Below, piece by piece: positions 308 to 49,062 of a DNA stretch of 52,910 nt. Both the position numbers and the translations under genes were made by a program. The stretch is from Myxococcota bacterium (GTDB taxonomy: Bacteria; Myxococcota_A; UBA796; CAJQPC01). The stretch spans positions 1 through 52,910 of the forward strand of contig DASCPX010000053.1 of the NCBI GenBank assembly GCA_036012755.1. Direction: 5' to 3'. The notes below the pieces were generated by a model. That model had not been told where the DNA came from and did not search any database. It was given only the letters and a program-made list of their open reading frames with translations. Positions within the stretch are counted from its first letter, which is position 1. Every line of letters starts with the position of its first letter.

Positions 308-1870
308 TCAGTACACGAAGCAGGTGCCACCGTTCACCTGCCCGATCTCGTCGGCGGTCAACAGCTCCAGGTACTCGTCGAAGGGTGTGCCCTTTGCGCT
401 CACCGCCGTGACGGGCTCGCTGTCGGGGTCCTCGTCGCCGTCGTAGTCGACCGCCGCGTCCCAGATGTGCTCGCCGCCGTCGACGGTCACGACGCCGTGG
501 CTGTTGAAGCTCCAGCGCTGCCAGTCCTCCGTGCCCGCGGCTCGGGTCAGGTGGGTCTGGAAGTTGTAGGCCAGCGTCACGTACTCGGCCGGCAGGCCCA
601 GGTGGTTGGCTTCGGAGCTCAGGACACAGGCCAGCGAGTGGCAGTAGAGGTGCACACCGCTGGACCGCGCCAGCCAGTCGCTCATCTCCACCCAGGTGTA
701 GTCCCAGGTGATGTAGCTGCCCTCGAAGCTCGAGTAGGCGGAGTCGGAGGGGTCGTAGACCAGGAAGGGATCCTCGTGGAGCTGGTCCCGCAGATTGTCC
801 ATGAGGGCGAAGTGGTCGTCCGCGGGCAAGCCGGCGACGGCCTCGTTGACCTCGTCCAACACCCCGATCCAGGCCACGTCGGCGGAGGCGTCGATCCAGG
901 CGCCGTCGGGCACGGTGGGCTGACCGGCGAGCACGTAGCGGGCGTGCGTCGTCGTCTCGGAGCCGATGAGAACCGGCGCGCCGTCGATGAGCGCGTAGTA
1001 CTCCAGCGACAGCGAGAACTCCTCGCGCCCGACCACATCCGGGACGGACGAGGTCATCGACCAGGTGCGGGTCTCGCCGGGCTCCCAGGTCTGCAGCCCC
1101 TCGAGCTCCGGACCGCCGACGAGCACGATGGGCGGCTCCAAACCGCCCGCGGTCAGTGCGAGCCCCGTGACCTGGGAGACCGCCTCTGCCCCGAAGCTGA
1201 CGGTCACGTGCGGGACGGTCCCGTAGACCTGCCCCGCCGGCACGTTGTGGCGCTTGCCCGGCGCTTCGGCGCCCCAGGGTGGGACGTCGGGATCGAGCCA
1301 CACCTCCGGCGCTTCCCTGGGCTCTCCCCAGTCATCGTCGAGATCGGCCAGCTCCTCGTCGAAGACGCGCCCGTTTCGGTACTCGGGGATGCCGTCGAGC
1401 TCGGTGATGCCGGGCTGGCCGAGCCCAACCGAGTGGTAGGCCAGCGGCACGCTGTCGGGCCCGCCGAAGTCGATCGCGACGGCTCCGAGGCGAACGACCG
1501 AGACGGGCTGGAGGTTCACGGCGGCGCCGAGCTCTCCACAGTCCACCGTCGCGACGAGGTCGATGCGGCCCGGGTCGAAGGCCAGGCCGTCATCGTCGAG
1601 CCCGTCGAACTCGAACTCTCGGGCCTCTCGCCACTCGGCGTCCTCTTCGAGGATGGTGCGAGTGCGACCGATGTGGTCCTGTGCGTTCAGCTCGTGGGAG
1701 CAGTCCTGGATGGGTCCGCCCGTGAGCAGCACGTCTCCCTCGATGAGCCCACCGAGCTTGGGGTCGAGCACGGTCGTGCTCGGCAGGTTCACGTAGACCG
1801 CGCCCTCCACCAGCGTGGTGCGGATGACCGGGTCGTCGCTGGGCGAGCAGGACAACAGCGCGAAGATCAC
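308..1870 (-). CDS. Lipoprotein with C-terminal putative transglutaminase/papain-like (Cys-His-Asp) domain
   Basis: MIFALLS-C lipobox; start overlaps the upstream stop (GTGA). C-terminal LYCHSLA...FNSHGVV...IWDAA follows the C-H-D order. Confidence 0.65.
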   Translation of the reverse strand: MIFALLSCSPSDDPVIRTTLVEGAVYVNLPSTTVLDPKLGGLIEGDVLLTGGPIQDCSHELNAQDHIGRTRTILEEDAEWREAREFEFDGLDDDGLAFDPGRIDLVATVDCGELGAAVNLQPVSVVRLGAVAIDFGGPDSVPLAYHSVGLGQPGITELDGIPEYRNGRVFDEELADLDDDWGEPREAPEVWLDPDVPPWGAEAPGKRHNVPAGQVYGTVPHVTVSFGAEAVSQVTGLALTAGGLEPPIVLVGGPELEGLQTWEPGETRTWSMTSSVPDVVGREEFSLSLEYYALIDGAPVLIGSETTTHARYVLAGQPTVPDGAWIDASADVAWIGVLDEVNEAVAGLPADDHFALMDNLRDQLHEDPFLVYDPSDSAYSSFEGSYITWDYTWVEMSDWLARSSGVHLYCHSLACVLSSEANHLGLPAEYVTLAYNFQTHLTRAAGTEDWQRWSFNSHGVVTVDGGEHIWDAAVDYDGDEDPDSEPVTAVSAKGTPFDEYLELLTADEIGQVNGGTCFVY

Positions 1871-2982
1871 CGCTCACCTCTGCGGCGCATCCACAACAGC
1901 GCGATGAGCCAGGCGGCGCCTGCCTGAAGTGGGGTGCCGCAGCCGGAGGGTACGGCTTCGTTCTCCGTGATGAGCTCGTCGATGACGCTGGCGTCCGGCC
2001 GCTCGGCTTCGGGGCAGTCGGTGACGTCCGGGTCCCCGTCGTCACAGTCGCCGTCAGCCTCCGTGAGCCCGTCCCCGTCGTCGTCCGAGACCGAGGTGTC
2101 CTCGTCGATCTCGCCGTCGCAGTCGTTGTCGAGGCCGTCCGGGTACTCCGAGAGGTGTCCTCCGACCCAGGGATCACGGTCGTCGCAGTCCCCCTTCTGC
2201 GCGGCCAGGCCGTCGCCGTCGATGTCCTGCCAGGCCGCCGCCTCCTCGGCCAGCGCCACCGCCTCGTCGACTCCAGCGCCGAAGCCGTAGACGAAGACGA
2301 CCTCGACGGTGTCCCCGGCGGAGAGCGAGCCCACAGCGGTCGCCACGCCGATGACGTAGTCCCCTTCGAGCTCTCCGGTGCTCCCGGCGAGCACGCCCGC
2401 TGGATCGAGGCACCAGCTGCAGATGCCACCCTGCCCACCCTCGGATGCCACCGCCAGCGCCTTGTCCATCAGCAGCGAGCCAGACCAGGCGACCCCGGCC
2501 TCCGCCCCGTTGGCGGTCCCGAAGGAACCGTCGAAGAGGTAGTCGGTGTCAGCGTCGACGGTCCGGGACAAGCGCACGTCCTGGAGGTCCTCTGTGGCTG
2601 TCAGGACGAAGGTCGTGTAGAGCACCGGGTGATCGGCGGGCAGGTCGAGCACCAGCTCCAGCGTGGCGCCTGGGAGCTCCACGGAGCCACGCAGGGTCTG
2701 GACGAAGCCGTTGTCTTCGAGACCCGCCCAGGTGACCTCCAGACCGTCACCGTCAGGGATCGAGTTCGTCGCAGAGAAGCTCGAGGCGGTGATCGCCCAG
2801 CTCTCGAAGGCGCGCCCGGGCAAGAGCAGATCAGTGCCGATGGGGTCGCCACCAGGACCGTCCGGGTCGTGGAGGATGCCCAGGGAAGCCTCCTGGTCGA
2901 CCAGGGACCCATCGGAAGCAACACCGACGGCGATCTGGTCACCCCAGAGGGTCGTTGCAGAGGCGAGGGAGAACAACAGCAC
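1867..2982 (-). CDS. Secreted protein with MopE-like Cys/Asp repeats and MYXO-CTERM-like tail
   Basis: MLLFSLASA signal; GDCDDRD..PDGLDNDCDGEIDE repeat; C-terminus SGC-GTPLQAGAAWLIALLWMRRR. Confidence 0.75.
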   Translation of the reverse strand: MLLFSLASATTLWGDQIAVGVASDGSLVDQEASLGILHDPDGPGGDPIGTDLLLPGRAFESWAITASSFSATNSIPDGDGLEVTWAGLEDNGFVQTLRGSVELPGATLELVLDLPADHPVLYTTFVLTATEDLQDVRLSRTVDADTDYLFDGSFGTANGAEAGVAWSGSLLMDKALAVASEGGQGGICSWCLDPAGVLAGSTGELEGDYVIGVATAVGSLSAGDTVEVVFVYGFGAGVDEAVALAEEAAAWQDIDGDGLAAQKGDCDDRDPWVGGHLSEYPDGLDNDCDGEIDEDTSVSDDDGDGLTEADGDCDDGDPDVTDCPEAERPDASVIDELITENEAVPSGCGTPLQAGAAWLIALLWMRRRGER

Positions 2983-2994
2983 GAGGGCGAGAGC

Positions 2995-5579: not shown

Positions 5580-5951
5580 ATGCGCCATCTCACCGCCGCC
5601 GCCCTCTTTCTTACCTCCCTCGCCACGCTGACCGCCTGCGGACCGGCCATCTGCACGGAGATCGCGGTCAGCTCCGTCACCCTCGAACTCTACGACCTCG
5701 ACACGGGCGAGGGAGTCGTCGGCGCCGACGTCCAGTACGCAGTCGACGGTGGCGACTTCGGCCCCTGCAGGAGCTGGGGCGAGGACCACATCTACAACTG
5801 CGGCGTCGAAGAGCCTGGCGCATTCGAGATCGCCGTCGACGCAGAGGGCTACGAGCTGCTCGAGGTCGCCGCCGATGTCGACGAGGACGAGTGCCACGTC
5901 ATCACAGAGGTGCTCGTCGAGGACCTCGTCCCGCTCGCAGAGGCCCGCTAG
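5580..5951 (+). CDS. Lipoprotein, carboxypeptidase-regulatory-like (prealbumin-like) domain
   Basis: GAGGAG SD; canonical MRHLTAAALFLTSLATLTA-C; DLDTGEGVVGADV...PGAFEIAVDAEGYE. Confidence 0.7.
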   Translation: MRHLTAAALFLTSLATLTACGPAICTEIAVSSVTLELYDLDTGEGVVGADVQYAVDGGDFGPCRSWGEDHIYNCGVEEPGAFEIAVDAEGYELLEVAADVDEDECHVITEVLVEDLVPLAEAR

Positions 5952-11417: not shown

Positions 11418-12270
11418 CCAGCGCCTCCTCGATGGCCCGGGCGATCTCGTCGGTCACAGAAGCGTTCGGGTGGACGTGGTCGAGCCACTGGTCCGAGTTC
11501 CACTGGGCTCCGACCGGGACCAGCGCCTCCAGGTCTACCAGCGCGAGGTCGTACTCGCGCGCCGCGTGCCTGATCGAGGCGTTCACGACCGCCTGGGCAA
11601 GGCGAACCTCCTCGACGAGCGCCGCGGCCTCCGGATCGAGGGCTTCTGGTGTGCCGGGGACGAGGTAGGTCAGCAGCACGACATCGCCGCCGCGAGCCCT
11701 GGCGGCCCCAACGATCTCGGGTAGGTGGAGCGCCCAGGCCTCGCGAAGCCAGTCCGCCCCTGCCCGCTCGATGCTGCCGTCGCTGCCTGCCCAGCGAACC
11801 AGCCGGAGCAGCCTGGGCCCCTTCCAGCCAGACGTCGTCTCGCCGAGCTCCTCGAAGCGGTGCTTCCTCAGCTCCGTGCCGCTGCCGGGCTCGAAGCGGA
11901 CCTCGTCGTTGTGGCCGAGCATGAGGAGCACCAGCGGCGTGGACTCCTCCGGCACCTCGTCGAGCCAGGCGACGCCCTCCTCCGCCGCGAAGGCGATCCT
12001 GGCGCCCGGGACTGCGTGCCGCACGACGGGAATGCGCCGGGTGGACAGCCGCTTCTCGAGTCGCTCCGGCCAGCTCTGACCGACCCCGAGTCCGACACCA
12101 GCCGTCACCGAGTCACCGAGGCAGAGGATGAAGTCGCCTTCGGGTGGGGCGGCGCTCGGCCCGTAGAGCCGCGGGAGGAGCGCCAGCCCCCCCTCGACCA
12201 GCAGCAGGAAGAGGATGAAGACACCAACCGAGTAGAGCGCCTTCCTGGGAGCGCTTAGGCTTCTGGCCAT
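11407..12270 (-). CDS. SGNH/GDSL hydrolase, N-terminally anchored
   Basis: CLGDSVTAG, GHND, DHVHPN; GAGGAGG SD before ATG 12270. Confidence 0.85.
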   Translation of the reverse strand: MARSLSAPRKALYSVGVFILFLLLVEGGLALLPRLYGPSAAPPEGDFILCLGDSVTAGVGLGVGQSWPERLEKRLSTRRIPVVRHAVPGARIAFAAEEGVAWLDEVPEESTPLVLLMLGHNDEVRFEPGSGTELRKHRFEELGETTSGWKGPRLLRLVRWAGSDGSIERAGADWLREAWALHLPEIVGAARARGGDVVLLTYLVPGTPEALDPEAAALVEEVRLAQAVVNASIRHAAREYDLALVDLEALVPVGAQWNSDQWLDHVHPNASVTDEIARAIEEALVTD

Positions 12271-13525
12271 GCTGCTCCTCCTCGCCTGCTCGACAAAGCC
12301 GGAGACTCCACCGGCCCCGGCGTCCAGGCCGACCATCGTAGTCGTCGTGCTCGACACGGTGCGCGCCGACCACATGGGGGCATGCGGCTACGAGCGGCCG
12401 ACCACGCCGGTCTTCGACGAGCTCGCCAGGACCGCGAGCTTCAGCTGCACCGCGATCAGCAGCGGGGACTGGACACTGCCCGCCCATGCCTCACTCTTCA
12501 CCGGCAAGCCGACCAGCGTGCACGGCGCCCACTCCCTCCCAGAGGGCAACGAGCTCCTGGGCTTGATGCGCATACGACCACTGGGCCCCACCCTCCCGAC
12601 CCTCGCAGAGGTCCTCGGCGAGCAGGGCTACCAGACGATCGCGCTCTCCGGAAACCCGGTCGTCGCGGCGGAGACCGGGCTCTTCCGGGGCTTCGACCAG
12701 TCCAAGAGCGCAGGGGTGATGGGCGAGCTGTGGGGCCGCAGCCTGGTCGCGGCGCTCGAGGAGAGCCTGGCAGCTGCCGATGACCGGCCGCTGTTCCTCT
12801 TCGCCAACATCGCGGACGCCCACCAGCCCTGGCAGCCGATCCCCGAGTCCTTTCCGTGGCTTCCAGCGCGCGAGGGCCACCGGCCCCTGATGCCAGAGGT
12901 CTACACCGGCCGCTTCGACGAGGAGGAGCTGGCCGAGCACTTCGCCCACGTGACAGATGTCTACGACTTCGGCATCTGGCGAGCCGACCTGGTGATGGGT
13001 CAGCTGCTGGCCACGCTGGAGACCGCTGGGCGCACGGACGACCTGCGACTGATCGTCCTGAGTGATCACGGCGAGTTCCTCGGAGAGCACGGCCTCGTCG
13101 ACCACGGACGCTACCTCTGGGAGCCCAACCAGCGAGTCGCGGTGCTGACCACCGACTCGGTGAAGATCCCGAACGATCTGCCAACCCTGCACGTCTTCGA
13201 CCTCGCCCAGGGGGGCCTGCCCGAAGAGCTCGCCCCGGCCGAGACCGTGGCCTACCCGGATCTCCTGTGGTCCACGCTCTCGAAGGGCCGCTACGGCGTC
13301 CACACATCGGTCGCATCCTGGCAGGGATCCACCAAGCTGATCTGGCAGGACGGCAGCTGCGCGAAGTACGATCTCGCCGCCGATCCTGGTGAGATCGTTC
13401 CGCTTGTCGACGACTGTTCCAGCATCCAGCACCTGGTGGAGCGCGCAGCCACCTCCGCCGAAGCCCCGGTCGAGATGGACCCGGCCCTCCTGGAGCGCCT
13501 TCGGGCCGCTGGCTACCTCGAATAG
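12269..13525 (+). CDS. Sulfatase-like (alkaline phosphatase superfamily) lipoprotein
   Basis: MLLLLA-C; LDTVRADH, WTLPAHASLFTG, SDHGE, DHG; C-terminal ERLRAAGYL. Confidence 0.85.
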   Translation: MLLLLACSTKPETPPAPASRPTIVVVVLDTVRADHMGACGYERPTTPVFDELARTASFSCTAISSGDWTLPAHASLFTGKPTSVHGAHSLPEGNELLGLMRIRPLGPTLPTLAEVLGEQGYQTIALSGNPVVAAETGLFRGFDQSKSAGVMGELWGRSLVAALEESLAAADDRPLFLFANIADAHQPWQPIPESFPWLPAREGHRPLMPEVYTGRFDEEELAEHFAHVTDVYDFGIWRADLVMGQLLATLETAGRTDDLRLIVLSDHGEFLGEHGLVDHGRYLWEPNQRVAVLTTDSVKIPNDLPTLHVFDLAQGGLPEELAPAETVAYPDLLWSTLSKGRYGVHTSVASWQGSTKLIWQDGSCAKYDLAADPGEIVPLVDDCSSIQHLVERAATSAEAPVEMDPALLERLRAAGYLE

Positions 13526-13982: not shown

Positions 13983-15350
13983 ATGCTCTTCCTGCTCGCC
14001 TGCGCTCCCTCCGCGGAGCTCCAGACCCTCGAGGCCTCCAGCTTCGGCCACGAGACCATCGAGATCCTCGTCGAGCCCGACGTAGAGGTCCTGGGGGTCA
14101 CCGTCGGCGGGCTGAACACCTACGACCTGCAGCGCTCGGACGACCGCCTGACCGTCACGGTCCAGGGCATCGGCGAGGCTGGCCCCGCCACGGTGCTGGT
14201 GTTGACGCCAGAGGCCGAGGTAGACGCGGGCGAGCTCGACTACTTCCCGGCCGCGGACCCGCTCTTCGACCGCGTGGTCGGGATAGGCGCGTCCCTGACC
14301 CAGGGCGTCCAGGATGGCGTGCCCACCTTTCACGCCAACCTCATGTCACCAGGCGCCCAGATGGCCCGGCAAGCAGGCGCCAACTACGGCATCCCGCTGT
14401 TGGTCGAGGACCTCTTCCCCACGATCGAGATCGAGCACATCGGCCCCGCCCCCGAGTGCGAGAGCCCGCCGGTGGTCGCCCACGTCACCAACGCAGCGCT
14501 CGAGGTGCTCAACAAGCTCAACGACGACGAGGGCAACTTCCGCTACGACTTCGGTCGGGTCGATCCCGATCTGCCCGTCTACGACGCGGCGGTCGGCGGC
14601 TTCATGGTGGGCCACCTCACAGAGGGGCTCTACAACGACTTCACCCGCGGCTTCCTCGCCCACATGGTGCTCGACCCCTACGCCGAGCTGAACGAAGGCA
14701 TCACCTTCTCCCAGGTCGATCTCGTGCTGGAGCGGGACCCGACCCTGGTCCTGTGCTTCGACACCTTCGGCAACGATCTCATCGGCGCCATCGTGCTCGG
14801 CAAGAGCGTGGACCTCGGCGCCATCACTCCAGAGGATGAGTTCATCGAGGACGTGGAGCTTCTCTTCGAGGAACTCGGCGCCAGCGACGCAGAGGTCTTC
14901 GTCGCGAACTCGCCGCGACCCGGGCTCCTCCCCGCCGCGCGCAACCAGGTGCTCCGGGCGGACGACCCAGAGGCCGAGCAGGCGAAGATCGACGAGGCCG
15001 ACGAGATCGCCCTCCGCTACAACGCGCTGTTCTCCGGGCTCGCAGAGGGCTACCCGAACATCCACGTGGTCGACGCCTACAGCCACACGGAGCGCCTCAG
15101 CGAGGACGGCCTGGTGGCCAACGGAGAGACCCTCGACGCCCGCATGTTCGGGGGACTGCTCAGCCTCGACGGCGTGCACTTCACCGACACGGGCTACGCG
15201 GAGTTCGCGAACCTCTTCCTCGACGCCATCGAGGACGACCTCGGCGTGGACATGGAGCGCGTGGACATCGACGCGGTGGCGGCGGCCGACCTGCGAACAC
15301 CCTCGGCCCTGCGAGATGCAGGCCTCGACGTCGACGCCTGCGACCGCTGA
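13983..15350 (+). CDS. SGNH/GDSL hydrolase lipoprotein
   Basis: MLFLLA-C; IGASLTQG, FGND, SLDGVHFT. Confidence 0.8.
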   Translation: MLFLLACAPSAELQTLEASSFGHETIEILVEPDVEVLGVTVGGLNTYDLQRSDDRLTVTVQGIGEAGPATVLVLTPEAEVDAGELDYFPAADPLFDRVVGIGASLTQGVQDGVPTFHANLMSPGAQMARQAGANYGIPLLVEDLFPTIEIEHIGPAPECESPPVVAHVTNAALEVLNKLNDDEGNFRYDFGRVDPDLPVYDAAVGGFMVGHLTEGLYNDFTRGFLAHMVLDPYAELNEGITFSQVDLVLERDPTLVLCFDTFGNDLIGAIVLGKSVDLGAITPEDEFIEDVELLFEELGASDAEVFVANSPRPGLLPAARNQVLRADDPEAEQAKIDEADEIALRYNALFSGLAEGYPNIHVVDAYSHTERLSEDGLVANGETLDARMFGGLLSLDGVHFTDTGYAEFANLFLDAIEDDLGVDMERVDIDAVAAADLRTPSALRDAGLDVDACDR

Positions 15351-15377: not shown

Positions 15378-15599
15378 GTGCTGTGGCTCCTGAGCCAGGT
15401 GGCGTTCGCGCGCTGTCCAGACATCGAGGTCTCCGCGGACACGACCGCAGAGGCCCTCCTCCATGCCAACACGCTGTATTGGTGGGCACGAGCCAGCGGC
15501 GACGACCTCGCGCTCCACTGTCGGGCCCAGGCCTACCTGGAGCTGGCCCTGGGCGCGGACACGGAGTGGCGACAGCGGATGGAGGGACTGCTGGTGTGA
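15378..15599 (+). CDS. Small hypothetical secreted protein
   Basis: TAGAAT 6 nt upstream of GTG; MLWLLSQVAFA signal; two Cys; stop overlaps the next start. Confidence 0.6.
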   Translation: MLWLLSQVAFARCPDIEVSADTTAEALLHANTLYWWARASGDDLALHCRAQAYLELALGADTEWRQRMEGLLV

Positions 15600-16699: not shown

Positions 16700-17023
16700 A
16701 TGCTGTCCCTGCTCTTCGCCCTGACCGTCAACTCCGCGGACGCCTGCCCGATGGCCGATGCCGAGGCTGCGGCTGCGGCCCGCGCCAAGGTCGAGGCGGC
16801 AGAAGGCGACAAGGTCACCTTCAGCGTCGAGGGCATGTCCTGCGGAAGCTGCAGCGCCAAGATCACGGCGGCGCTGGAGGGCGTCGAAGGGGTCGTGGCT
16901 GCCGCGGTCGACTACCAGGAGGGCACCGCCGTGGTGGCCTATGACGCCGCAAAGGTAGACCAGGACAAGCTCCTCGCTGCCATCACCGACCTCGGGTTCG
17001 CGGCCCGGGCGCCCAAGAGCTGA
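16700..17023 (+). CDS. Exported heavy-metal-associated (HMA, MerP/CopZ-like) protein
   Basis: Signal peptide, then VEGMSCGSC...LEGVEGV...ITDLGF. Confidence 0.9.
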   Translation: MLSLLFALTVNSADACPMADAEAAAAARAKVEAAEGDKVTFSVEGMSCGSCSAKITAALEGVEGVVAAAVDYQEGTAVVAYDAAKVDQDKLLAAITDLGFAARAPKS

Positions 17024-30314: not shown

Positions 30315-30731
30315 TCAGCGCGCGTAGACAGAGGTCTTGAACCTGGCTCGCCCGCCCTTGCACTGGCCGGCTCGGCAGACCTTGAACTTCACCTTGCCCG
30401 AGACCCCGTAGTCGCCCATCTTGCCGGCTCGGTAGGGCACCTCGACCGTGTAGACGGTGCCGTCCTCGTTGAGCGACCCGTCTTCCCGGTGCATCGTCGA
30501 CTGCCCCCACTGCACGTCCTTGGGCGGGGACCTCATCGACACCTTGATGTCGTACTCGTTGTCGAGGCGGTAGCCGTCGGTGGCGTAGATCACGATCCTC
30601 ACGTGGCCGCGCTCCCCGATGGCCGCCCTGCCGGAGTAGACCTGCACCTCGTAGCCCTCCTTGGCGACGGTCGTGCCGAACTCGTTGTCGTTCCGACCGC
30701 CGAACGAAAGGGCGATGAGGGTGAGAAGCAT
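30315..30731 (-). CDS. Small secreted Ig-like protein (DsbD-N-like)
   Basis: GGAGG SD; GYRLDNEY, VSGKVKFKVC...C C-terminal motif. Confidence 0.6.
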   Translation of the reverse strand: MLLTLIALSFGGRNDNEFGTTVAKEGYEVQVYSGRAAIGERGHVRIVIYATDGYRLDNEYDIKVSMRSPPKDVQWGQSTMHREDGSLNEDGTVYTVEVPYRAGKMGDYGVSGKVKFKVCRAGQCKGGRARFKTSVYAR

Positions 30732-32593: not shown

Positions 32594-33175
32594 ATGCTCA
32601 GCCTGATTATCGCCTGCTCGACCGCTCCGGAGACCGCCTCGGTGGTGGACGCCTGCCCAAGCTACAGCGGCCTTGGTGCACCCGGTAGCTGGCGCCGCTG
32701 GGAACAGGACGACGGCAGCCGGATGGAGACGATGGTCTCGGCCCGGCACATGAACCGCCTGGGCTTCGAAGACCTCCTCGTCGACACGGTCCTGGAGACG
32801 GACGACGCCCGCATCGATCTGCACGTCGTGGCGCGCTGCGATGAGCAGGGCATGCACCACCTCGGGGCGGAGGTGACCACCTCATCCGACGGCGAGGTCG
32901 TGCTCAACGACGTCGCGCTCGGAGAGCTGGTGTTGCCACACGACGTCGGGCTCGGTGACGAGCTCCCGGACGGCGGGCTCGTCGTCGGTTCCGGGACTCA
33001 ACCTGCCGGTGACCTGCTCGTCGACGCGCTCGAGGTCCACTACGAGCAGACCGGGGCTGCGTGTTCGGACACCACGGTCTGGTTGAACTCGGAGCTGGGG
33101 ATGGTGCGCAGCGAGGGTGACCCGGACTGTGACGGCGAGACCGACGTGACGGAGCTGGTCCGCTTCGGGGACTGA
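32594..33175 (+). CDS. Hypothetical lipoprotein
   Basis: MLSLIIA-C; C-terminal WLNSELGMVR beta-hairpin motif. Confidence 0.65.
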   Translation: MLSLIIACSTAPETASVVDACPSYSGLGAPGSWRRWEQDDGSRMETMVSARHMNRLGFEDLLVDTVLETDDARIDLHVVARCDEQGMHHLGAEVTTSSDGEVVLNDVALGELVLPHDVGLGDELPDGGLVVGSGTQPAGDLLVDALEVHYEQTGAACSDTTVWLNSELGMVRSEGDPDCDGETDVTELVRFGD

Positions 33176-36287: not shown

Positions 36288-36331
36288 GACCCGATGGTAC
36301 CTACCCGAGACGCCTCGGATACAGTTGTCGT

Positions 36332-37459
36332 GTGCCGTTGATCCTGCTCGCCTGCCTGCCCTCCCTCCCGTCAGCGTCGGATGAACCCTGCAAGGCCTTC
36401 GAGCTGTGCAACGACCTCGACGACGACTGCGACGGCGCGATCGACGAGTCTCCAGAGGACGGGATCTGGTGGGGGCTCGACGAGGACGAAGACGGCTACG
36501 GCTCCGCCGAGGACCCTGTGCTCGCCTGCTCGGCGCCCCCGACCCGTGTCCCGTCCACCTCCGACTGCGATGACAGCGACCCGGAGGTCAACCCGGGCGC
36601 GGAAGAACACTGCAACGACCTCGACGACGACTGCGACGACGAGATCGACGAGGACGCCATCGACGCGCCGATCTGGTACGTCGATGACGACGGCGACGAT
36701 TGGGGGGCCGCGGAGGACGTGATCTACGACTGCGCCGAGCCCTGGGGCTACACCGACAGGGCCGGGGACTGCGAGGACCACAGCTCCTCGATCCACCCGG
36801 AGGCCGACGAGTACTGCAACGGGATCGACGACGACTGCGACGAAGCGGTCGACGAGGACGCCGTCGACGCGGACAGCTGGTGGGTGGACGCTGACGGAGA
36901 CGGCTACGGCGACCCCGACAAGGAGCTGCTGTCCTGCTCGATGCCGACAGCGACCGTGGACAACGACGAAGACTGCGACGACGGGGACAAGGCGGTCAAC
37001 CCTGGCACCACAGAAGAGTGCAACGCCGTGGACGACGACTGCTCCGGCTGGATCGACGACAACGACGCCTGCAGCTGCGACACCCACTGGAACGACGACG
37101 GCGACCCCTATCTCTTCTGCATCGACCTGAGTTGGGAGTGGTTCGCCGCGCAGAAGGGCTGCGCATCGGTCGGCTACCACCTCGTCACGATCGACGACGG
37201 GGACGAGAACGACTGGGTGACCGACGTGCTGGAGACCAAGAGGCAGGACGACTGGTGGAGCGGCTACAACGACCGCGACAAGGAGGACCACTGGGTGTGG
37301 GAGGACGGCTCGTCGTCGACCTACACCAACTGGGCGGACGACCAGCCGAACGACTGGGGCCTGGGCCAGGACTGCATGGAGCTCTTCTCCTCCTGGACCG
37401 ACACCTGGAACGACGCCGACTGCGACAGCGACAAGCGCTTCATCTGCGAGCTGGACTGA
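36332..37459 (+). CDS. Lipoprotein with MopE-like repeats and C-terminal C-type lectin domain
   Basis: VPLILLA-C; ~4 repeats; YLFC..W..A...C...GYHLVTIDD..EN, WSGYND, NW..DQPND, DC, WNDADC..RFICE. Confidence 0.88.
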   Translation: MPLILLACLPSLPSASDEPCKAFELCNDLDDDCDGAIDESPEDGIWWGLDEDEDGYGSAEDPVLACSAPPTRVPSTSDCDDSDPEVNPGAEEHCNDLDDDCDDEIDEDAIDAPIWYVDDDGDDWGAAEDVIYDCAEPWGYTDRAGDCEDHSSSIHPEADEYCNGIDDDCDEAVDEDAVDADSWWVDADGDGYGDPDKELLSCSMPTATVDNDEDCDDGDKAVNPGTTEECNAVDDDCSGWIDDNDACSCDTHWNDDGDPYLFCIDLSWEWFAAQKGCASVGYHLVTIDDGDENDWVTDVLETKRQDDWWSGYNDRDKEDHWVWEDGSSSTYTNWADDQPNDWGLGQDCMELFSSWTDTWNDADCDSDKRFICELD

Positions 37460-40511: not shown

Positions 40512-42348
40512 CAACGACCGGGTCGACCAGCTCGTCGAGCTGCTCACCCGCTACAACGAGAGCTACCGGGCAGGAACGCCGGAGGTCACGGACCTCGAGT
40601 ACGACGAGCTGACCGAGGAGCTCCGCGGTCTCAGCCCGCAGCACCCCTTCCTCCACGCGGTGGAGCCCGAGGCGGGCTTCGGAGAGGGCAGGGTCCGTCA
40701 CGCCGAGCCGATGCTGTCGACGGAGAAGGCCTACACCATCGAGGCCCTACAGGCCTGGGTGGACCGGGTGCACAAGGCCGCCGCGGAGATCGGACTGGAG
40801 GCCGTCGCCGTCCGGGTCACGCCGAAGCTCGACGGGCTCGCCGGACGTGACCTTGGAGGAGTCTTCGCCACGCGCGGGAACGGGCGGGTAGGCAACGACA
40901 TCACCTACGCCTTCGAGCGCGGGATCGTGCCCGTCGGTGGTCGCGGCCAGGGTGTCGGCGAGATCGTGATGGTCAAGTCCTGGTTCGAGGCCAACCTCGC
41001 GACCGTGTTCGATCATCCGCGCAACACCTGCGTCGGGATCGTCTCCGCGGATGTCGTCGGCCAGCACGCACAGAGAGCCCTCGACGCTGGCGTCGTCCAC
41101 TTCGTCCCTTACAGCACCCTCGCGAAGTGGACCGGCGACGCCAGCGAGCTCGTGGAGCAGGCAGCTGCGATCACGGCGTCGCTGAAGGGCCAGGTCGACT
41201 ACGCCTTGGATGGAATGGTCGCCGAGGCGCTGGACGACGCGCTCAGAAAGCACATGGGGGCGACCAGCCACCACCACCGCTGGATGATCGCCCTGAAGGA
41301 GCGTGGCGAGACCGCTGAGACGACCGTCGTCGACATCGCCTGGCAGACCGGCCGCACCGGAAACGTGACGCCGGTGATGCTCGTCGAGGCGGTAAAGGTC
41401 AGCGGCGCGACCATTCGCCGAGTCACCGCCCACAACGCCGGCATGGTGCGTGATCTGGACATCGGTCCGGGGGCGCGAATCCAGATCATCCGCTCCGGAG
41501 AGGTCATCCCCAAGCTCGAGGAGGTGTTGCAACCGGCGAAGAGCGTTCAGCTTCCCGGCGAATGCCTCTCCTGCGGCGCAGAGCTCCAGTGGCTCAAGGA
41601 CTTTCTGAACTGCGGCAACCACAGCAGCTGTCCAGCCCAGGTCGAGACCGGCATCCGCCACTGGTTCCGCACGCTGCGGACGGCTGACCACTTCGGTCCC
41701 GCCACGATCAAGCGTCTCGTCGCCGGCGGCTTCGTGTCGCTGGAGGCGATCTACGCCCTGACAGAGGCGGATCTGCTCGGGCTCGAGTTCGGCCCCGGAC
41801 AGACCGCGAACCTCGTCGCCGCCCTGGGTGTGTCCCAGCGCCAGATGGTGGAAGACGCCCGCTTCCTCGCCGCCTTCGGGATCCCCGACCTCGGCGTCGG
41901 CGACTCGCGCAAGCTGCTCGCGGCCTTCCCGCTGGAGAGCCTCGAGGGGTTGACGGCGGATCAGCTCGTCGAGGTGAAGGGCTTCGGCGACAAGACCTCT
42001 GTGAGCATCGTGTCCGGGCTCCAGGCGCGCTGGCCGACGATCCGCCACATGCTCGAGCTCGGCTTCAGCCTGGAGCGCACGCCACTGGCCACAGACGCCG
42101 TGAAGGTCGAGTCCCCCATCGCCGGGCTCTCCGTGCTGTTCACCGGCAAGATGGTGCTCGGGACGAGGGATGACATGAAGAAAAGGGCCAGGGGACTGGG
42201 CGCAAAGCTGGCGTCCTCGATCTCGAAGAAGCTGGACCTGCTCGTCATCGGAGACAAACCCAGCCCAGCCAAGATCAAGAAGGCCGAGGCAGCAGGTGTG
42301 CGAGTCCTGACGGAAGCCGACTACAACGCCCTCATCGGGCCGGGCTAA
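40492..42348 (+). CDS. NAD-dependent DNA ligase, compact atypical LigA-like
   Basis: Domain Ia (Y..G.P..TDLEYD), HAEPMLS, KLDG, TRGNG, WQTGRTG.VTPV, RSGEVIPK, C4 Zn finger, HhH repeats, BRCT (VLFTGKM). Confidence 0.88.
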   Translation: MAGMLSDNDRVDQLVELLTRYNESYRAGTPEVTDLEYDELTEELRGLSPQHPFLHAVEPEAGFGEGRVRHAEPMLSTEKAYTIEALQAWVDRVHKAAAEIGLEAVAVRVTPKLDGLAGRDLGGVFATRGNGRVGNDITYAFERGIVPVGGRGQGVGEIVMVKSWFEANLATVFDHPRNTCVGIVSADVVGQHAQRALDAGVVHFVPYSTLAKWTGDASELVEQAAAITASLKGQVDYALDGMVAEALDDALRKHMGATSHHHRWMIALKERGETAETTVVDIAWQTGRTGNVTPVMLVEAVKVSGATIRRVTAHNAGMVRDLDIGPGARIQIIRSGEVIPKLEEVLQPAKSVQLPGECLSCGAELQWLKDFLNCGNHSSCPAQVETGIRHWFRTLRTADHFGPATIKRLVAGGFVSLEAIYALTEADLLGLEFGPGQTANLVAALGVSQRQMVEDARFLAAFGIPDLGVGDSRKLLAAFPLESLEGLTADQLVEVKGFGDKTSVSIVSGLQARWPTIRHMLELGFSLERTPLATDAVKVESPIAGLSVLFTGKMVLGTRDDMKKRARGLGAKLASSISKKLDLLVIGDKPSPAKIKKAEAAGVRVLTEADYNALIGPG

Positions 42349-43256
42349 CCCTCCTGTTCGATGTCCCTGTTGCCGTAGTCGATGTACTTCACGAAGATGT
42401 AGGTGCCCGGCTGCGGCACGGCCCCCCCGTGGAAGACGATCGCGTTGAGCGCCGCCTCGTATGTCCAGCCGTCGTCCTCGTCCATCTCGACGCTGAGCCC
42501 CTCGACGCGAACCTGGAGGGACTCCGGTGCCGGGATCGCCTGGAGCGGGAAGGTGTCCGACATGCCAGCCGCGCCGAGCCCGATGCCGCGCATGACCGGC
42601 TCGAAGTCCGCTGCGCAGATCGAGCGGAACTGGCCCTCGGAGCGCTCGACCGTCTCCAGCAGGCGCTCGGCGGCCACTGCGTTGGCGAGGGCGCTGCTGC
42701 AGCCCTCTGGCAGGCCGCCCGCGACAACGTAGAGGCCGAAGTCGTGGCCGAGGGACTCCAGATCGTCGAGGTAGTCGGTGACCGGCCCCTCGCTGTGGTC
42801 GTCCTCGTCGGTCACCACGACGACCGCGAGGTAGCTGACCTCGCGCACCAGATCGGCGTTGTCCGTCGAGGCCCAGGGCTCGGATGTCGCGAGGGAAGCG
42901 GCGTACAGGGGCTGCTCGTCCCGTGAACCCTGGACGCCCACGAGGACCTGCTCGGCGAAGTCGTCCACCAAATCAGCGTCACCAGCCTTCAGGACCGGTC
43001 CGCGCAAGGCGCCGGCGTCGGCGTCGACGTCCGTGGTGGTGACGCCGACCTGGAAGTCGACGCCGGCCTCGTCCAGCGCCTGCACGAAGGCATCGGCGTG
43101 ATCCGCCAGCTGATCCTGCTCCTCGAACATCGTCGCAGAGTCGTCGACGACCCAGAGCACGTCGATGGGAGAGCGGGCGTCGCCTTGGGTCCACGAGTCT
43201 GTGGCGTAGAGCTGATGGACACCCTGGTCCATGCAAGCGGAAAGGAGGAGCAGCAT
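42345..43256 (-). CDS. vWA-like lipoprotein (myxobacterial CglD-like family)
   Basis: MLLLLSA-C; DVLWVVDDSATMFEEQ, GVTTTD, VVVVTDEDD, SICA.DF, GWTY...NAIVF. Confidence 0.7.
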   Translation of the reverse strand: MLLLLSACMDQGVHQLYATDSWTQGDARSPIDVLWVVDDSATMFEEQDQLADHADAFVQALDEAGVDFQVGVTTTDVDADAGALRGPVLKAGDADLVDDFAEQVLVGVQGSRDEQPLYAASLATSEPWASTDNADLVREVSYLAVVVVTDEDDHSEGPVTDYLDDLESLGHDFGLYVVAGGLPEGCSSALANAVAAERLLETVERSEGQFRSICAADFEPVMRGIGLGAAGMSDTFPLQAIPAPESLQVRVEGLSVEMDEDDGWTYEAALNAIVFHGGAVPQPGTYIFVKYIDYGNRDIEQEG

Positions 43257-43287
43257 GACGCGTCATCCTTCTCTATCATCGGGCCCC

Positions 43288-44946
43288 ATGCAAGCGCTCC
43301 TGCTCCTTGCCTGCAACGGCGGGCCCCAGTCGAACCCCTACGGCGCCATCGTGGCGCTCTCGGTGGAGCCCGCCTCCGTCGAGCTGACCACGACATCGAC
43401 GGAGCAGGAGACCGTCGACTATGTCGCCATCGCAGAGTTCGAGAGCGGACACGTCGAGGAGCTCAGCGGCGTGGTGGGCTGGAGCCTCTCCAACGAGTCC
43501 GTCGGGATCATCCTCCAGGACGGCCACTTCACCACGAGCGCAGAGGCCGGGGGCCGCACCCTGGTCCAGGCGAACGCCGGCGGCATCCTGGCCACGGCAG
43601 ACGTGATCGTGGTCTTCACCGAATCGGTCATCGACGGCGGCGCCTCCGAGGTCGACCTCGACGAGGACGCCCCGGTGGACGGAGCCCTGAGGTGGCTCTA
43701 CCCAGAGGACGGCGCTGCCCTCCCGCTCAACGTGCCGTCGATGACCTTCATGTGGGACGACGCCTGGGGGGCCGACCTGTACCGCTTGCGCTTCCGCTCC
43801 GCGACGACCGAGGTCGAGGTCTGGACCACCTCGAACGAGTACGAGGTCGTCCAGGACATCTGGCGCGTCATCACCGCGACCAACGCCGGAGGCGAGGTCG
43901 AGGTCCGTCTCGACGCCGTGAAGCTCGTGGACGGCGAGGTCGCGGACCAGGTCACCGCAGAGGACATGAGCTTCCTGGTCAATCGCTTCGACGCCTTCGG
44001 GGCGATCACCTACTTCGCCACGAACAAACAGGGCATCATTCGCTCCCCGGTGGACCAGGTCGCTCCTGTGGAGTGGTTCTCGCGCGAGACAGAGAACACC
44101 AACAGCTACTGTGTCGGATGCCACGTCGTCTCGCCCGACGGAGAGCGGCTCGGGTACAGCTGGCAGGTGAACACCGACGCTGACGAGCAGGTCGGGCTCG
44201 CGAGCATCACAGAGGACATCGAGCCCGAGCCGCTGATCCCCATGGACTCGAGCGCCGACTACGGGAGCTTCGCCACCTTCTCGTCAGACGGCGACTACAT
44301 CGTCTTTTCCGAGGACAACGAGCTCCACTTCTATGACGGACGCACGGGCGACTACGCATCCACGCTGGACTCCGATCTGTACCTGACCATGCCCCACTGG
44401 TCCGCGGACGACTCGATGCTCGTCGCCGTCTCGGGCATGGGGAACAACGACAACACCCGCTTCGCGCGCTCGGCCCTCGTGATCTTCGACCACCTGGGCG
44501 ACGGGGTGTTCGGACCGCCTCGGACGCTCCTGCCCGAGGCCACCGACTACAACTACTACTACCCGATGTTCAGCCCGGACTCGCAGTGGGTGGCCTACAA
44601 CCGCTCGTCGACCGGGAGGACCGCCTTCACAGAGGACGCTGCCCTGTGGCTGGTGGCCGCGGACGGCACAGGCGAGGAGATCGAGCTCGTCACGGCGAAT
44701 CGCTCCGACGTCGGGAACGCCTCGTGGCCGCGCTGGGGCCCGATCCCCGACGACGACATCCTCTGGCTGGCGTTCGCGTCGAACCGTCCATACGGGCACT
44801 ACCAGCCCGAAGACTCCCAGATCTGGATCACCGGCATCGACACGACGGTCGCCGAGACCGGAGAAGACCCGAGCCTGCCCGCCTACCGACTGCCTCAGCA
44901 GTCCCTGGAGACATCGAACCACGCACCCTTCTGGTCGATGTACTGA
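43288..44946 (+). CDS. Ig-like + TolB/PD40 beta-propeller lipoprotein with CxxCH
   Basis: MQALLLLA-C; LYPEDG; CVGCHVVSPDG; PHWS, YYPMFSPDSQWVAYN, SWPRW, WLAFASNR. Confidence 0.8.
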   Translation: MQALLLLACNGGPQSNPYGAIVALSVEPASVELTTTSTEQETVDYVAIAEFESGHVEELSGVVGWSLSNESVGIILQDGHFTTSAEAGGRTLVQANAGGILATADVIVVFTESVIDGGASEVDLDEDAPVDGALRWLYPEDGAALPLNVPSMTFMWDDAWGADLYRLRFRSATTEVEVWTTSNEYEVVQDIWRVITATNAGGEVEVRLDAVKLVDGEVADQVTAEDMSFLVNRFDAFGAITYFATNKQGIIRSPVDQVAPVEWFSRETENTNSYCVGCHVVSPDGERLGYSWQVNTDADEQVGLASITEDIEPEPLIPMDSSADYGSFATFSSDGDYIVFSEDNELHFYDGRTGDYASTLDSDLYLTMPHWSADDSMLVAVSGMGNNDNTRFARSALVIFDHLGDGVFGPPRTLLPEATDYNYYYPMFSPDSQWVAYNRSSTGRTAFTEDAALWLVAADGTGEEIELVTANRSDVGNASWPRWGPIPDDDILWLAFASNRPYGHYQPEDSQIWITGIDTTVAETGEDPSLPAYRLPQQSLETSNHAPFWSMY

Positions 44947-45972: not shown

Positions 45973-46042
45973 GTTCGATGCCTATCGAAGCTGTGCGCGC
46001 CCTGCACACCAATGCCACAATCGCGCGCAATAGGAGGCTCCC

Positions 46043-47977
46043 ATGCTGCTGCTCCTGACGGCCCTCGGCTGTCGCAACAAGGACTACGTCGTCGATAGCG
46101 CACCCCTGGTCACGGAAGACACGGGCCCCTTCGACGACGACGGCGACGGCTTCGTCGCCAGCGTCGACTGCGACGACGCGAACCCCGCCGTGTACCCGGG
46201 CGCGGTCGAGCTCTGCAACGGCCTCGACGACGACTGCGACGAGGACATCGACGAGGAAGCCGTGGACGCGAGCACGTGGTACGCCGACACCGACACCGAC
46301 GGCTACGGCGCGGGGGATGCCATCAGCTCCTGTGAGCAGCCCGACGGGACCTCTGCGGTCGACGGCGACTGCGACGACGCGGACACCGCCTACCACCCCG
46401 GCGCCGAGGAGTCTGACTGCACAGACCCGAACGACTACAACTGTGACGGGGCGGTGGGGTACGCCGACAATGACGCCGACGGCTTCCCGGCCTGCGAGGA
46501 CTGTGACGACTTCGACGACGACGTGAACCCGGACGCCGAAGAGGTCTGCAACGGTGAGGACGACGACTGCGACGGAAGCATCGATGTCGGGGCCAGCGAC
46601 GCGGACACCTGGTACGCCGACACCGACGCCGACGGCTACGGCGACGCGACGATGACAAGCGAGGCCTGCGACCAGCCCTCCGGCTATGTCGCAGATGCGA
46701 CCGACTGCGACGACTCGAGCGCTGAGACCAACCCTGCGGGGACAGAGATCTGCAACGACATCGACGACGACTGCGACGATGACATCGACGAGGAGGCCAC
46801 CGACGCACCGACCTGGTACGCGGACACCGACGCCGACGGCTACGGTGACGCAGCGTCGAGCACAGACTCCTGCGACGCGCCGACCGGGTCCGTGTCCGAC
46901 GACACGGACTGTGACGACGCGGACGGGGACGTGAACCCGGGCGCGACCGAGATCTGCAACGACATCGACGACGACTGCGACGGCGACATCGACGGCGGCG
47001 CCACGGACGCCACGACCTGGTACGAGGACGCTGACTGCGACGGCTACGGCGACGCCGCCAGCAGCACCGATGCCTGCGACAGCCCCGGAGACGACTACAC
47101 GACCGACGACACCGACTGCGACGACAGCGATCCCCTCGCCTTCCCCTCCGGGACCGAGGTGTGTACGTCCGTCGACAACGACTGCGACGGCACCGTCGAC
47201 AACGACTGCACCGACACCAACGTGATCTCCTCGCCGACCCATGACGCCATCGACAGCCCCACCGGTGCCCAGGCGTGCGCGCTCATAGGAGAGATGGACA
47301 CCTCGCCCGGGGACGCGCACTACACCACGAACCTCAGCAGCTTCATGAGCGTGCTCACAGGCTCCAGCAGCGGCCTCGCCTCGAGCACCGACCAGGCTGT
47401 GTACGAGCTCGACTGGAGCAACCGCTGCAGCACGGCGTACACCGCGAGCGACGGCAACTACACCACGACCACGAACTCCTGGCCCGTGCTCTCCAGCACT
47501 GGCAGCTACGGCGCCGCCCGCTTCCGCGGCTACATGAACATCGGCTGCGGCGAGGAGCTCCACCGGACCATGGGTCTCCTGGGCAACGACGCGCTCAGCT
47601 TCAGCATCGAAGGCACCGAGATCATCAAGGTGAACTGGTCGGACGGGCAGTGGAAGAAGTTCCGCTACGTCACGTTCCCAGAGCCCGGTCTGTATGCCTT
47701 CGAGGTCCAGTGGAGCACGAACCTGAACTGCAACATCGACCCCTTCGAGATCGTCTGGGCTGAAGGGTTCGTGAGCGGGTACGAGGACTACGACACCATG
47801 TGCAGCTACTCGAGCTGCACCTACGGCACCGGGACACCCATCCCGAGCTTCAGCATCGTCACGGACGACAACCTCGTAGCCACGACCGATGGGACCGCCA
47901 GCGACTGCGCACAGTGCGAGTCGGACACAGGGTGCGACTCGGGAGAGAGCTGCAACGACGCGGGAATCTGCGAGTGA
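46043..47977 (+). CDS. Lipoprotein with ~6 MopE-like repeats and PA14-like C-terminal domain
   Basis: AGGAGG SD; MLLLLTALG-C; repeated DCDD..PG.E.CN..DDDCDG..TWYAD.D.DGYG; ARFRGYMNI...NDAL...PGLYAFEVQW. Confidence 0.82.
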   Translation: MLLLLTALGCRNKDYVVDSAPLVTEDTGPFDDDGDGFVASVDCDDANPAVYPGAVELCNGLDDDCDEDIDEEAVDASTWYADTDTDGYGAGDAISSCEQPDGTSAVDGDCDDADTAYHPGAEESDCTDPNDYNCDGAVGYADNDADGFPACEDCDDFDDDVNPDAEEVCNGEDDDCDGSIDVGASDADTWYADTDADGYGDATMTSEACDQPSGYVADATDCDDSSAETNPAGTEICNDIDDDCDDDIDEEATDAPTWYADTDADGYGDAASSTDSCDAPTGSVSDDTDCDDADGDVNPGATEICNDIDDDCDGDIDGGATDATTWYEDADCDGYGDAASSTDACDSPGDDYTTDDTDCDDSDPLAFPSGTEVCTSVDNDCDGTVDNDCTDTNVISSPTHDAIDSPTGAQACALIGEMDTSPGDAHYTTNLSSFMSVLTGSSSGLASSTDQAVYELDWSNRCSTAYTASDGNYTTTTNSWPVLSSTGSYGAARFRGYMNIGCGEELHRTMGLLGNDALSFSIEGTEIIKVNWSDGQWKKFRYVTFPEPGLYAFEVQWSTNLNCNIDPFEIVWAEGFVSGYEDYDTMCSYSSCTYGTGTPIPSFSIVTDDNLVATTDGTASDCAQCESDTGCDSGESCNDAGICE

Positions 47978-49062
47978 TCCTCCTCCTCATGACCGGCTGT
48001 TTCAGCGACTTCGGCTCCAACTACACGTCGTGGATCCCGGATTTGTCCGTCTCGACGCAAGTACCGCGCGCGACCAACAGTGACGTCCAACGAGTCGAGA
48101 AGTACCTCCTGCCGTCCTACATCGCGGACTGGGACCCGGAGGTGCAGCAGCGCTGCGCCGATGGAGAGGACATGCGGGCCCACTTCGGGACCCAGTACGC
48201 GATGATCGAGGTCCAGCGCTGGGGAGTGCTGCTCAACGGCGTGTACACGACGTCGCTGAACGACGGGGTCCTCGACACCTCGGGATACCGCGGTCTCCTC
48301 CTCCCCTTGCTCTACGACGCGCTCCTCGCCATGCGCCTGAACGCCGAGGCCACCATGTCCGGCCTGGCCTGCTGGTCCGGCTCCCAGAAGCGCCTCCTCG
48401 TCGTCGCCGAGCCGGCCACGGACTGGGGGCTCGTCCAGCGGATCGTGTACACAGCCCACCAGGCAGGCTTTCCGGACGTGGACCTCCTCGTGGACGACGC
48501 TGCCGCCGTCGCCGACGCGACCGCGAGCCCGCCCTATCCCCTGTTCTCAGGTAGCGAGCAGGAAGAGAGAGAGGCCCTGCCACGCCTCTCGGAGGAGGAG
48601 ATCGACAAGGCCAGGGAGATGCTGGCACGAGGTCAGCGGGTCCGGGAGACCGGAGCGCGGTGCTCGGATCGACTCGAAGCGTTCTTCTCGGCCAATGGCA
48701 CACGGACTCTCTCTGGACAGTCCTCGTTCGGGTACGCCCTGGACGCCGACCATCCCTCCGACCCGGCCCTCATCGACCCGGCTGGCAGCCTCGACATCGT
48801 AGTCGCCGCCCAACCCGACACCGAGTACGGCGATCTCGTCGACGGGATCGTGTCACTCCGAGGCGACAACCCGAGCGCCTCGCTGATGTTCGACGAGAGC
48901 ACCTCTGCCAACCCCTCCTTCCAGGCGCTGGGGGTGGTGGCGAGCACCCACTACAAGTCGTTCTCGAAGGAGACCTGGATCCCGGTCATCGAGATCGAGC
49001 CGGAGCGCATCGGACAGACCCTGTCCTGCATCGACGACGAAGGGAACCTGCACGAGCTCTGA
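47974..49062 (+). CDS. Hypothetical lipoprotein with ExbD/AglS-like segments
   Basis: GTGA-coupled; MILLLMTG-C; LLVVAEPATDWGLVQRIVYTAHQAGF and IVVAAQPDTEYGDLVDGI. Confidence 0.5.
   Translation: MILLLMTGCFSDFGSNYTSWIPDLSVSTQVPRATNSDVQRVEKYLLPSYIADWDPEVQQRCADGEDMRAHFGTQYAMIEVQRWGVLLNGVYTTSLNDGVLDTSGYRGLLLPLLYDALLAMRLNAEATMSGLACWSGSQKRLLVVAEPATDWGLVQRIVYTAHQAGFPDVDLLVDDAAAVADATASPPYPLFSGSEQEEREALPRLSEEEIDKAREMLARGQRVRETGARCSDRLEAFFSANGTRTLSGQSSFGYALDADHPSDPALIDPAGSLDIVVAAQPDTEYGDLVDGIVSLRGDNPSASLMFDESTSANPSFQALGVVASTHYKSFSKETWIPVIEIEPERIGQTLSCIDDEGNLHEL

Follow-up and report, generated by a model that had tools for sequence, protein, structure and literature searches.

Many of the lipoproteins encoded in the 52,910-nucleotide stretch of DNA analysed here (contig DASCPX010000053.1 of a Myxococcota bacterium, assembly GCA_036012755.1; hereafter the window) begin with Met, a bare hydrophobic stub and, at residue 7-10, the lipobox Cys. 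Such stubs are a real, genome-wide and lineage-restricted trait of this uncultured two-membrane bacterium, in whose 6.73-Mb genome (G000; 96% complete, with the window as its contig C53) two leader classes coexist, a large one that is short and uncharged and a small canonical one. The overall explanation that we favour, and consider probable rather than secure, is that the stubs and a similarly clipped set of leaders head genuine Sec-exported pre-lipoproteins and signal peptidase I (SPase I) substrates, whose signal peptide would have shrunk.

Among 2766 start-bounded genes, that is, genes of at least 100 aa whose first possible start lies no more than three codons from the best coding start, 406 open with Met, an uncharged stub and [AGS]-Cys, a form found at 66 of 42,501 internal start codons; a looser count gives a stub option in 922 of 5705 genes. 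The Cys of the 406 stubs stands at residue 6 (3 genes), 7 (66), 8 (141), 9 (89), 10 (63), 11 (31) or 12 (13), hence at 7-10 in 359 of them, short of the ~16-26 membrane-spanning residues of a normal leader. Directly after M[LIVFMW]{4-6}[AG], the next residue is Cys at 111 of 169 N-termini, compared with 1 of 534 internal matches. When leaders are taken without a filter on charge, Lys or Arg (K/R) occurs in 1/210 of those with Cys at 6-8, 3/150 at 9-10, 5/45 at 11-12, 5/16 at 13-15 and 23/28 at 16-20. A positively charged n-region is thus missing from nearly all leaders with Cys at or before residue 10 (K/R in 4/360), while 22% of all genes carry K/R at residues 2-3. This histogram of first-Cys position and n-region charge had been proposed as a check in an earlier sequence-only reading of the window, and it came out as that reading expected.

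The composition of the stubs is equally distinctive. Residue -1, for which no selection was made, is Ala, Gly or Ser in 310/321 stubs vs 224/461 controls, and residue -2 is Leu in 221/321. Regardless of their length, stubs carry four to five strongly hydrophobic residues, and their mean hydropathy is 2.8, against 1.5 for canonical leaders. At residue 2 of 259 stubs, chosen blind, K/R occurs three times, Asp or Glu (D/E) never and S/T/G/P/N/Q/H 49 times, so that charges of both signs are depleted vs polar uncharged residues relative to background (K/R, p = 8e-4; D/E, p = 7e-4), more strongly than a demand for hydrophobicity would account for. Ala is nearly missing at the same position (1/259 vs a background of 9.1%), and Ser, Thr, Gly and Pro are tolerated there. 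The mature net charge per 100 aa is -14 for stub proteins, -13 for canonical lipoproteins and -3 for cytoplasmic-like proteins. Among assignable SPase I-like leaders, whose cleavage sites are guessed, 124/154 have 8-12 residues, with Ala peaks at residues 9-11, and fall below the n-h-c form of at least 15 residues.

The sequence-only reading had listed 15 lipobox leaders with Cys at residue 7-10 and without K/R, four clipped SPase I-type leaders and a canonical leader at 5580, and all 20 coordinates translate as claimed. Its list of SPase I-type leaders proved incomplete, since those at 15378 and 16700 are clipped as well, and its statement that only 5580 is canonical holds among the lipoproteins and not overall, because 15596 and 45972 carry a basic n-region before the hydrophobic stretch. 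Envelope-type cargo is recognised by Pfam in 10 of the 15 stub lipoproteins, two of the matches being weak (sulfatase, M28, M2, MopE-type repeats, lectin, lamin-tail and beta-helix). The features of the window are as follows, genes being named in the text by the coordinate of their start.

308..1870, minus strand: stub lipoprotein MIFALLS-C (Cys 8), without a Pfam family; its GTG start overlaps the upstream gene's TGA.
1867..2982, minus strand: clipped SPase I-type leader MLLFSLASA on a MopE-type repeat protein.
5580..5951, plus strand: canonical lipoprotein leader with Arg at 2 and Cys 20, an internal control.
12256..12261, plus strand: TAGGCT, a -10-like hexamer 7 nt upstream of the ATG at 12269.
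12269..13525, plus strand: stub lipoprotein MLLLLA-C (Cys 7), sulfatase domain.
13983..15350, plus strand: stub lipoprotein MLFLLA-C (Cys 7), weak GDSL match; an in-frame TAG stands immediately 5' of the ATG.
15378..15599, plus strand: clipped SPase I-type leader MLWLLSQVAFA, missed by the sequence-only reading.
16700..17023, plus strand: clipped SPase I-type leader MLSLLFALTVNSADA, HMA domain, likewise missed.
17980..19506, plus strand: stub lipoprotein MTLLLLPA-C (Cys 9), PA domain and peptidase M28.
20839..22911, minus strand: stub lipoprotein MLFFVFA-C (Cys 8), MopE-type repeats; GGAGG Shine-Dalgarno (SD) sequence.
23328..24095, minus strand: stub lipoprotein MILLALG-C (Cys 8), lamin-tail domain.
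24221..24949, plus strand: clipped SPase I-type leader MLFALIAVAA; AGGAGG SD.
24971..26377, plus strand: stub lipoprotein MLIFAIA-C (Cys 8), beta-helix.
27280..28938, plus strand: stub lipoprotein MLLLLAIA-C (Cys 9); in-frame starts also at -12 and -38 codons.
28941..30314, plus strand: clipped SPase I-type leader MHALIALASA, without an in-frame start upstream.
30315..30731, minus strand: clipped SPase I-type leader MLLTLIALSFG; diverges from 30764 with 32 bp between.
30764..32563, plus strand: stub lipoprotein MLLTLFLA-C (Cys 9), peptidase M2; in other phyla its homologs start with long leaders that end in a lipobox.
32594..33175, plus strand: stub lipoprotein MLSLIIA-C (Cys 8).
36320..36325, plus strand: TACAGT, a -10-like hexamer 6 nt upstream of the GTG at 36332.
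36332..37459, plus strand: stub lipoprotein MPLILLA-C (Cys 8), MopE-type repeats and C-type lectin.
42345..43256, minus strand: stub lipoprotein MLLLLSA-C (Cys 8), from a family with stub, short-with-Arg and canonical leaders on one Cys.
43257..43287, no strand: 31-bp gap between divergent stub genes, with TATCAT 8 nt upstream of 43288.
43288..44946, plus strand: stub lipoprotein MQALLLLA-C (Cys 9), weak PD40 match.
46043..47977, plus strand: stub lipoprotein MLLLLTALG-C (Cys 10), MopE-type repeats; AGGAGG SD and an in-frame TAG three codons upstream.
47974..49062, plus strand: stub lipoprotein MILLLMTG-C (Cys 9); its GTG start overlaps the TGA of the 46043 gene.

The sequence evidence indicates that the stub start codons are genuine. 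The features said to fix them are in place: GGAGG or AGGAGG at 22911 and 46043, GTGA overlaps at 1870 and 47974, and TAnnnT 6-8 nt 5' of 12269, 36332 and 43288. Upstream in-frame starts that add a basic n-region had been named as the finding that would speak against the stubs. None is possible for eight of the 15 (1870, 12269, 13983, 17980, 22911, 24971, 43256 and 46043), which lack an in-frame ATG, GTG or TTG back to the previous stop; the other seven have one, and at 30764 initiation five codons earlier would produce a leader of 13 residues that contains one Arg. The closest ortholog of that protein (L064, 72% identical) has the stub form MTFFYLIA-C. Across the genome, a stop codon lies in frame no more than 14 codons from the Cys in 132 of the 406 stubs (73 TAG, 43 TGA, 16 TAA). 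TAG also terminates 1124 of 4193 long genes, and these stubs are therefore rescued neither by an upstream start nor by read-through. Stop-codon recoding or read-through was rejected as an explanation, since TAG is a normal stop and all three stops bound stub frames. Divergent starts leave 31 bp between 43256(-) and 43288(+) and 32 bp between 30731(-) and 30764(+), and public gene callers assign the same N-termini to close homologs. Of 922 stub genes, 146 have TAnnnT 6-7 nt 5' of the start, and no other spacing accounts for more than 14. The same peak is seen in non-stub genes (217/2360), and near-leaderless transcription thus appears to be a habit of the genome that fixes starts and does not explain stubs. 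The 12269 transcript is, from its hexamer, probably leaderless or near-leaderless, and a sigma-70 scan of the 43256/43288 gap did not find a full promoter. With TAnnnT at this spacing in about 9-16% of genes, leaderless or near-leaderless mRNAs are predicted to be frequent in the lineage.

The stub proteins are very probably exported and lipidated, as the sequence-only reading had supposed. An even number of Cys residues is a sign of disulfide-bonded exported proteins, and the count after the lipobox Cys is even in 203 of 300 stub proteins without DCDD repeats vs 320 of 702 cytoplasmic-like proteins (p = 1e-10). Inclusion of the lipobox Cys drops even parity to 97/342, as expected if the exported proteins form disulfides among their other Cys residues and leave the N-terminal one unpaired. 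Homologs point the same way, for canonical lipoprotein leaders end on the same Cys as the stubs. In the M2 peptidase family a long lipobox leader stands at the matching place in 21 of 24 loci (judged by eye; 25 loci, one partial locus left out). Stub, short-with-Arg and canonical leaders share one Cys among the 120 listed homologs of 43256, where an automatic first-Cys count, blurred by extra Cys residues in leaders, gives 27 short leaders without K/R, 24 short with, 66 long and 3 proteins without Cys. The M2 peptidase of the window (30764-32563) is angiotensin-converting-enzyme-like, and its relatives are patchily distributed in several unrelated phyla.

Clipped leaders extend to outer-membrane cargo. 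BamA has a single ATG, GTG or TTG start, overlapping the lolD stop, from which 13 uncharged residues are read (MIHLLLAFWIALA). Five of ten TonB-dependent receptors have 11-12-residue leaders without K/R, three are canonical, one is intermediate and one is a fusion; many of 19 OmpA-domain proteins and several CxxCH proteins are likewise clipped. As a separate observation, a TonB-dependent receptor plug is fused in frame behind more than 300 residues with membrane segments at L229 (G000:C127) and L235 (G020). BamD is a lipoprotein in E. coli. It was dropped as a test of lipidation, most of 30 BamD loci of the order (L015-L044) having SPase I-type leaders without a lipobox Cys.

The stub trait is patchy within one Myxococcota-like order, and its expected restriction to a lineage is borne out. 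The pattern ATG-(NTN)5-GSN-TGY has 48 occurrences in G000; two members of its family have 59 and 91, and all five genomes of another family (f6) have 14-41. The remaining genomes of the order have 0-17, and none of 257 genomes outside the order has more than 7. A pattern one residue shorter is found 50 times in G000, 47 in its congener, 34 in G014 and 5-8 times in the genus having 59-91 of the longer one, which indicates that the modal stub length depends on the genus. In sampled DNA, treated by a single pipeline that always took the farthest start (samples of 34-400 kb, 34-140 kb for four order members), three G000 samples that overlap yield 24-38 forced stubs among 320-335 genes, and four relatives yield 12/73, 8/67, 5/67 and 4/53; the counts are 2/66 for f6, 0-2 in eleven further samples from the order, 0/57 in a class outgroup, 1/304 in G239, a genome of another class, and 1/105 in E. 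coli. Where the BamA leader is readable, its n-region lacks K/R in 7 of 9 stub-rich relatives vs 1 of 11 relatives that are stub-poor or mixed (by eye; five starts were unreadable or ambiguous). On a tree of SecA, Ffh and SecY from 30 genomes (G308 dropped), on which we assigned the rich and poor labels from data that include the counts of both patterns, the label changes four times, at least three of the changes being forced by starred branches; gain and loss are not distinguished.

The machinery for a conventional route is encoded: five Lgt, two LspA, Lnt, two LolA, LolC/D/E, one SecA, SecY, SecD/F, YajC, YidC, Ffh and FtsY, together with three LepB, TatC, trigger factor, Fmt, two Def and Map; searches with the E. 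coli proteins (E 1e-4) turned up no SecB, Skp, DsbA or TatA. The His of the HGGL motif is retained in just one of the five Lgt paralogs, and the two catalytic-Asp motifs are intact in both LspA copies. A tandem lspA-lspA-lgt-lgt cluster lies at G000:C59:100000-102591 (L001, L003, L006, L007). Lgt copies number 2-6 in 81/81 genomes of the order; copy number was rejected as a cause, since stub-poor G056, G111, G141 and G166 have five and stub-rich G321 has three. In alignment, 29/29 genomes of the order have Ala (17) or Ser (12) where E. coli SecY has Ile187, compared with Ile 26, Met 2 and Ser 1 among 29 outside the order, and this position is one of about ten order-diagnostic columns. The outside genome with Ser is G114 (L127). 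A comparison of about 24 genomes of the order yielded no position in SecY, SecA or Ffh that sorts stub-rich from stub-poor genomes cleanly, the few candidate differences being either conservative or also present in the outgroup. SecA (L008, G000:C23) has order-wide changes of its own, for example Tyr where E. coli has Leu372 (26/26 vs 0/5 class outgroups), a position that may be linked to signal binding; a literature search gave nothing on that link. The earlier proposal of a modified export and lipidation code is not supported in its original form: canonical leaders coexist with the stubs, Sec, SRP (signal recognition particle), Lgt, LspA, Lnt and Lol components are present, no separating residue emerges, and the one striking change, at SecY 187, is shared by the whole order.

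How might such a stub work? The signal peptide would have shrunk to Met, four to five strongly hydrophobic residues and a Leu-rich lipobox (LL[AG]-C). The stub would engage SRP or SecA and then the lateral gate of SecY, with the strongly acidic mature domain holding much of the targeting information, and the order-wide Ile187-to-Ala/Ser change in transmembrane segment 5 (TM5) of SecY may loosen proof-reading in a prl-like manner and permit repeated shortening of leaders in several branches. By geometry, 6-9 residues in helical form extend over about 9-14 Å, less than half of the bilayer, and excerpts of PMC9360617 place LspA cleavage inside the membrane near its outer side. Once its Cys reached the Lgt and LspA active sites in the outer leaflet, a stub too short to span the bilayer would have its N-terminus drawn into the membrane or gate, and charges of both signs would thus be excluded. 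A still-formylated Met would suit a buried stub better than a free amine; Fmt and two Def are both encoded, and either state of the N-terminus is compatible with the sequence. Lgt, LspA, Lnt and Lol would act afterwards in their usual manner. We regard this route of a buried stub through a permissive SecY as possible, at somewhat less than even confidence. A fuller proposal is more tentative and at present doubtful: a natural prl-like translocon in the order, together with a repeatedly evolved, non-spanning, charge-free and possibly formylated signal of 6-9 residues that would serve as a lateral-gate wedge and a minimal Lgt/LspA handle on about one gene in seven, with a 13-residue form on BamA.

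Several points weigh against our explanation. The gene calls come from our own hexamer model (5836 genes, 91% coding), and near-cognate starts could add a K/R-bearing extension in 109 of the 406 stubs. The strict lipobox [LV][ASTVI][GAS]C is present in 52/321 stubs vs 15/24 canonical leaders of the same genome. The charge of the mature N-terminus is equal in stub and canonical lipoproteins (p = 0.77), so that a compensating signal was not found there, and Cys parity in SPase I-type stubs is not significant (70/132 even, p = 0.13). G239, with SecY Ile187 intact, has many lipoprotein leaders of 12-14 residues that keep K/R (L344-L363), which suggests that the stubs are the extreme of a phylum trend. 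Since the SecY 187 change is found in all 29 genomes of the order, near-stubless ones included, it can be at most permissive. The four main SecY ring residues (86, 191, 278 and 408) are kept in G000, and 187 is taken to belong to the six-residue pore ring. In favour of the SecY step, excerpts of PMC3164448 and PMC13537251 report prl phenotypes from pore-ring substitutions. Among the variants listed from PMC13537251 (log2 over wild type: I187M 0.47, I191S 2.45, F192S 0.28), I187A and I187S are absent and I187M is the only one at 187; a literature search for I187 found nothing.

The alternatives must be weighed against these difficulties. It is unlikely that, as the sequence-only reading supposed, the deformylated amine of Met1 simply replaces the charge of the n-region and the stub is a normal signal peptide in miniature. 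Signal peptides of eukaryotes probably rely on the free amine, two Def genes are encoded, and the large hydrophobic residue 2 of 206/259 stubs would lead Met to be retained. However, a stand-in predicts that K/R should be harmless, and yet at residue 2 they reach, relative to background, a fifth of the frequency of polar uncharged residues, a deficit that it leaves unpredicted; Fmt is encoded too, and a charged end could not, by geometry, stay cytoplasmic with the Cys at the outer leaflet over 6-9 residues. A dedicated route, by way of YidC, a specialised Lgt paralog or an unknown adaptor instead of a relaxed SecYEG, appears quite unlikely. The five Lgt (with a single HGGL His) and two LspA, the shift of the lipobox to LL[AG]C and the failure to find SecB, Skp and DsbA with E. 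coli queries would fit it, but Lgt copy number has no link to stub abundance, and clipped SPase I-type substrates up to the size of BamA indicate that a general translocase is required. Very unlikely, in our view, is a Cys that is diacylated while the stub stays uncleaved as an extra membrane anchor: shortness would make a retained stub tolerable and Leu at -2 deviates from the usual box, but the small residue at -1 in 310/321 stubs, the catalytic-Asp motifs of both LspA and the presence of Lnt and LolA/CDE speak for cleavage.

Two further alternatives would dispense with the stubs as signals altogether. That starts are mis-assigned and the true proteins begin upstream with normal signal peptides is highly improbable. 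The seven window genes with an upstream start and the possible near-cognate extensions allow for it, but the stops of all three kinds, TAG being an ordinary one, refute it for a third of the set (132/406), and the sharp Cys peak at 7-10, the -10 spacing peak, the divergent pairs 31-32 bp apart and the agreement of public gene callers on the N-termini of close homologs argue against it for the remainder. It is scarcely credible that the proteins are cytoplasmic or unlipidated and that the motif serves another role: the support for lipidation is indeed sequence-based, but Cys parity, canonical lipoprotein homologs and clipped leaders on BamA, TonB receptors, OmpA-domain and CxxCH proteins all contradict it.

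The shrunken signal peptide that we favour resembles known systems in part. Like the E. coli Lpp-type Sec/signal peptidase II (SPase II) signals, stubs have a hydrophobic stretch, a small residue before the Cys and a low-complexity tether after it, Lgt, LspA, Lnt and Lol are encoded, and the Cys matches that of canonical homologs. Canonical lipoprotein signals are described in excerpts of PMC8689077 as 16-26 residues long on average, with the strict lipobox given above; in contrast, stubs have 6-9 residues before the Cys, no positive n-region, both charges excluded and Leu at -2 instead of A/S/T/V/I. Similarly, clipped leaders share with Sec/SPase I signals a hydrophobic core, a putative AxA-type end and outer-membrane or periplasmic cargo, and LepB is encoded, but they are putatively mostly of 8-13 residues and without a basic n-region, whereas E. 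coli SPase I signal peptides have a median of 22 and a minimum of 15-16 residues according to excerpts of PMC5963308. Thus, the stubs appear to behave as Sec/SPase II or SPase I signals, and yet they fall outside those families in length and n-region. The prl mutants of SecY/Sec61 made in the laboratory, which let proteins with defective signals through, offer a possible parallel, since in the order a bulky TM5 Ile is lost beside pore-ring residue 191, along with seemingly defective signals; unlike prl alleles, the change in the order is natural, order-wide, at 187 and not at the tested prl sites 191, 278 or 408, unrelated to stub abundance and of putative effect. The short basic lipoprotein leaders of G239 also lie below the E. 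coli minimum length, but they keep K/R near the N-terminus, whereas stubs are uncharged, and uncharged stubs number 1/304 there vs 24-38 of about 330 in the G000 samples. A literature search, judged from its listings and with a scope that left out subscription journals and bioRxiv supplements, found no description of such leaders.

The stubs would place the natural lower bound for bacterial signal peptides at less than half of the E. coli minimum, and they suggest that a basic n-region is dispensable, and may even be selected against, at this length. They make the roles of the n-region and of N-formyl, the minimal needs of Lgt and LspA and the proof-reading by SecY testable. If functional in laboratory hosts, export and lipidation tags of seven residues may be useful in protein engineering. 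For these uncultured bacteria themselves, annotation rules that demand K/R and a Cys at residue 15 or beyond would lose most of the envelope proteins.

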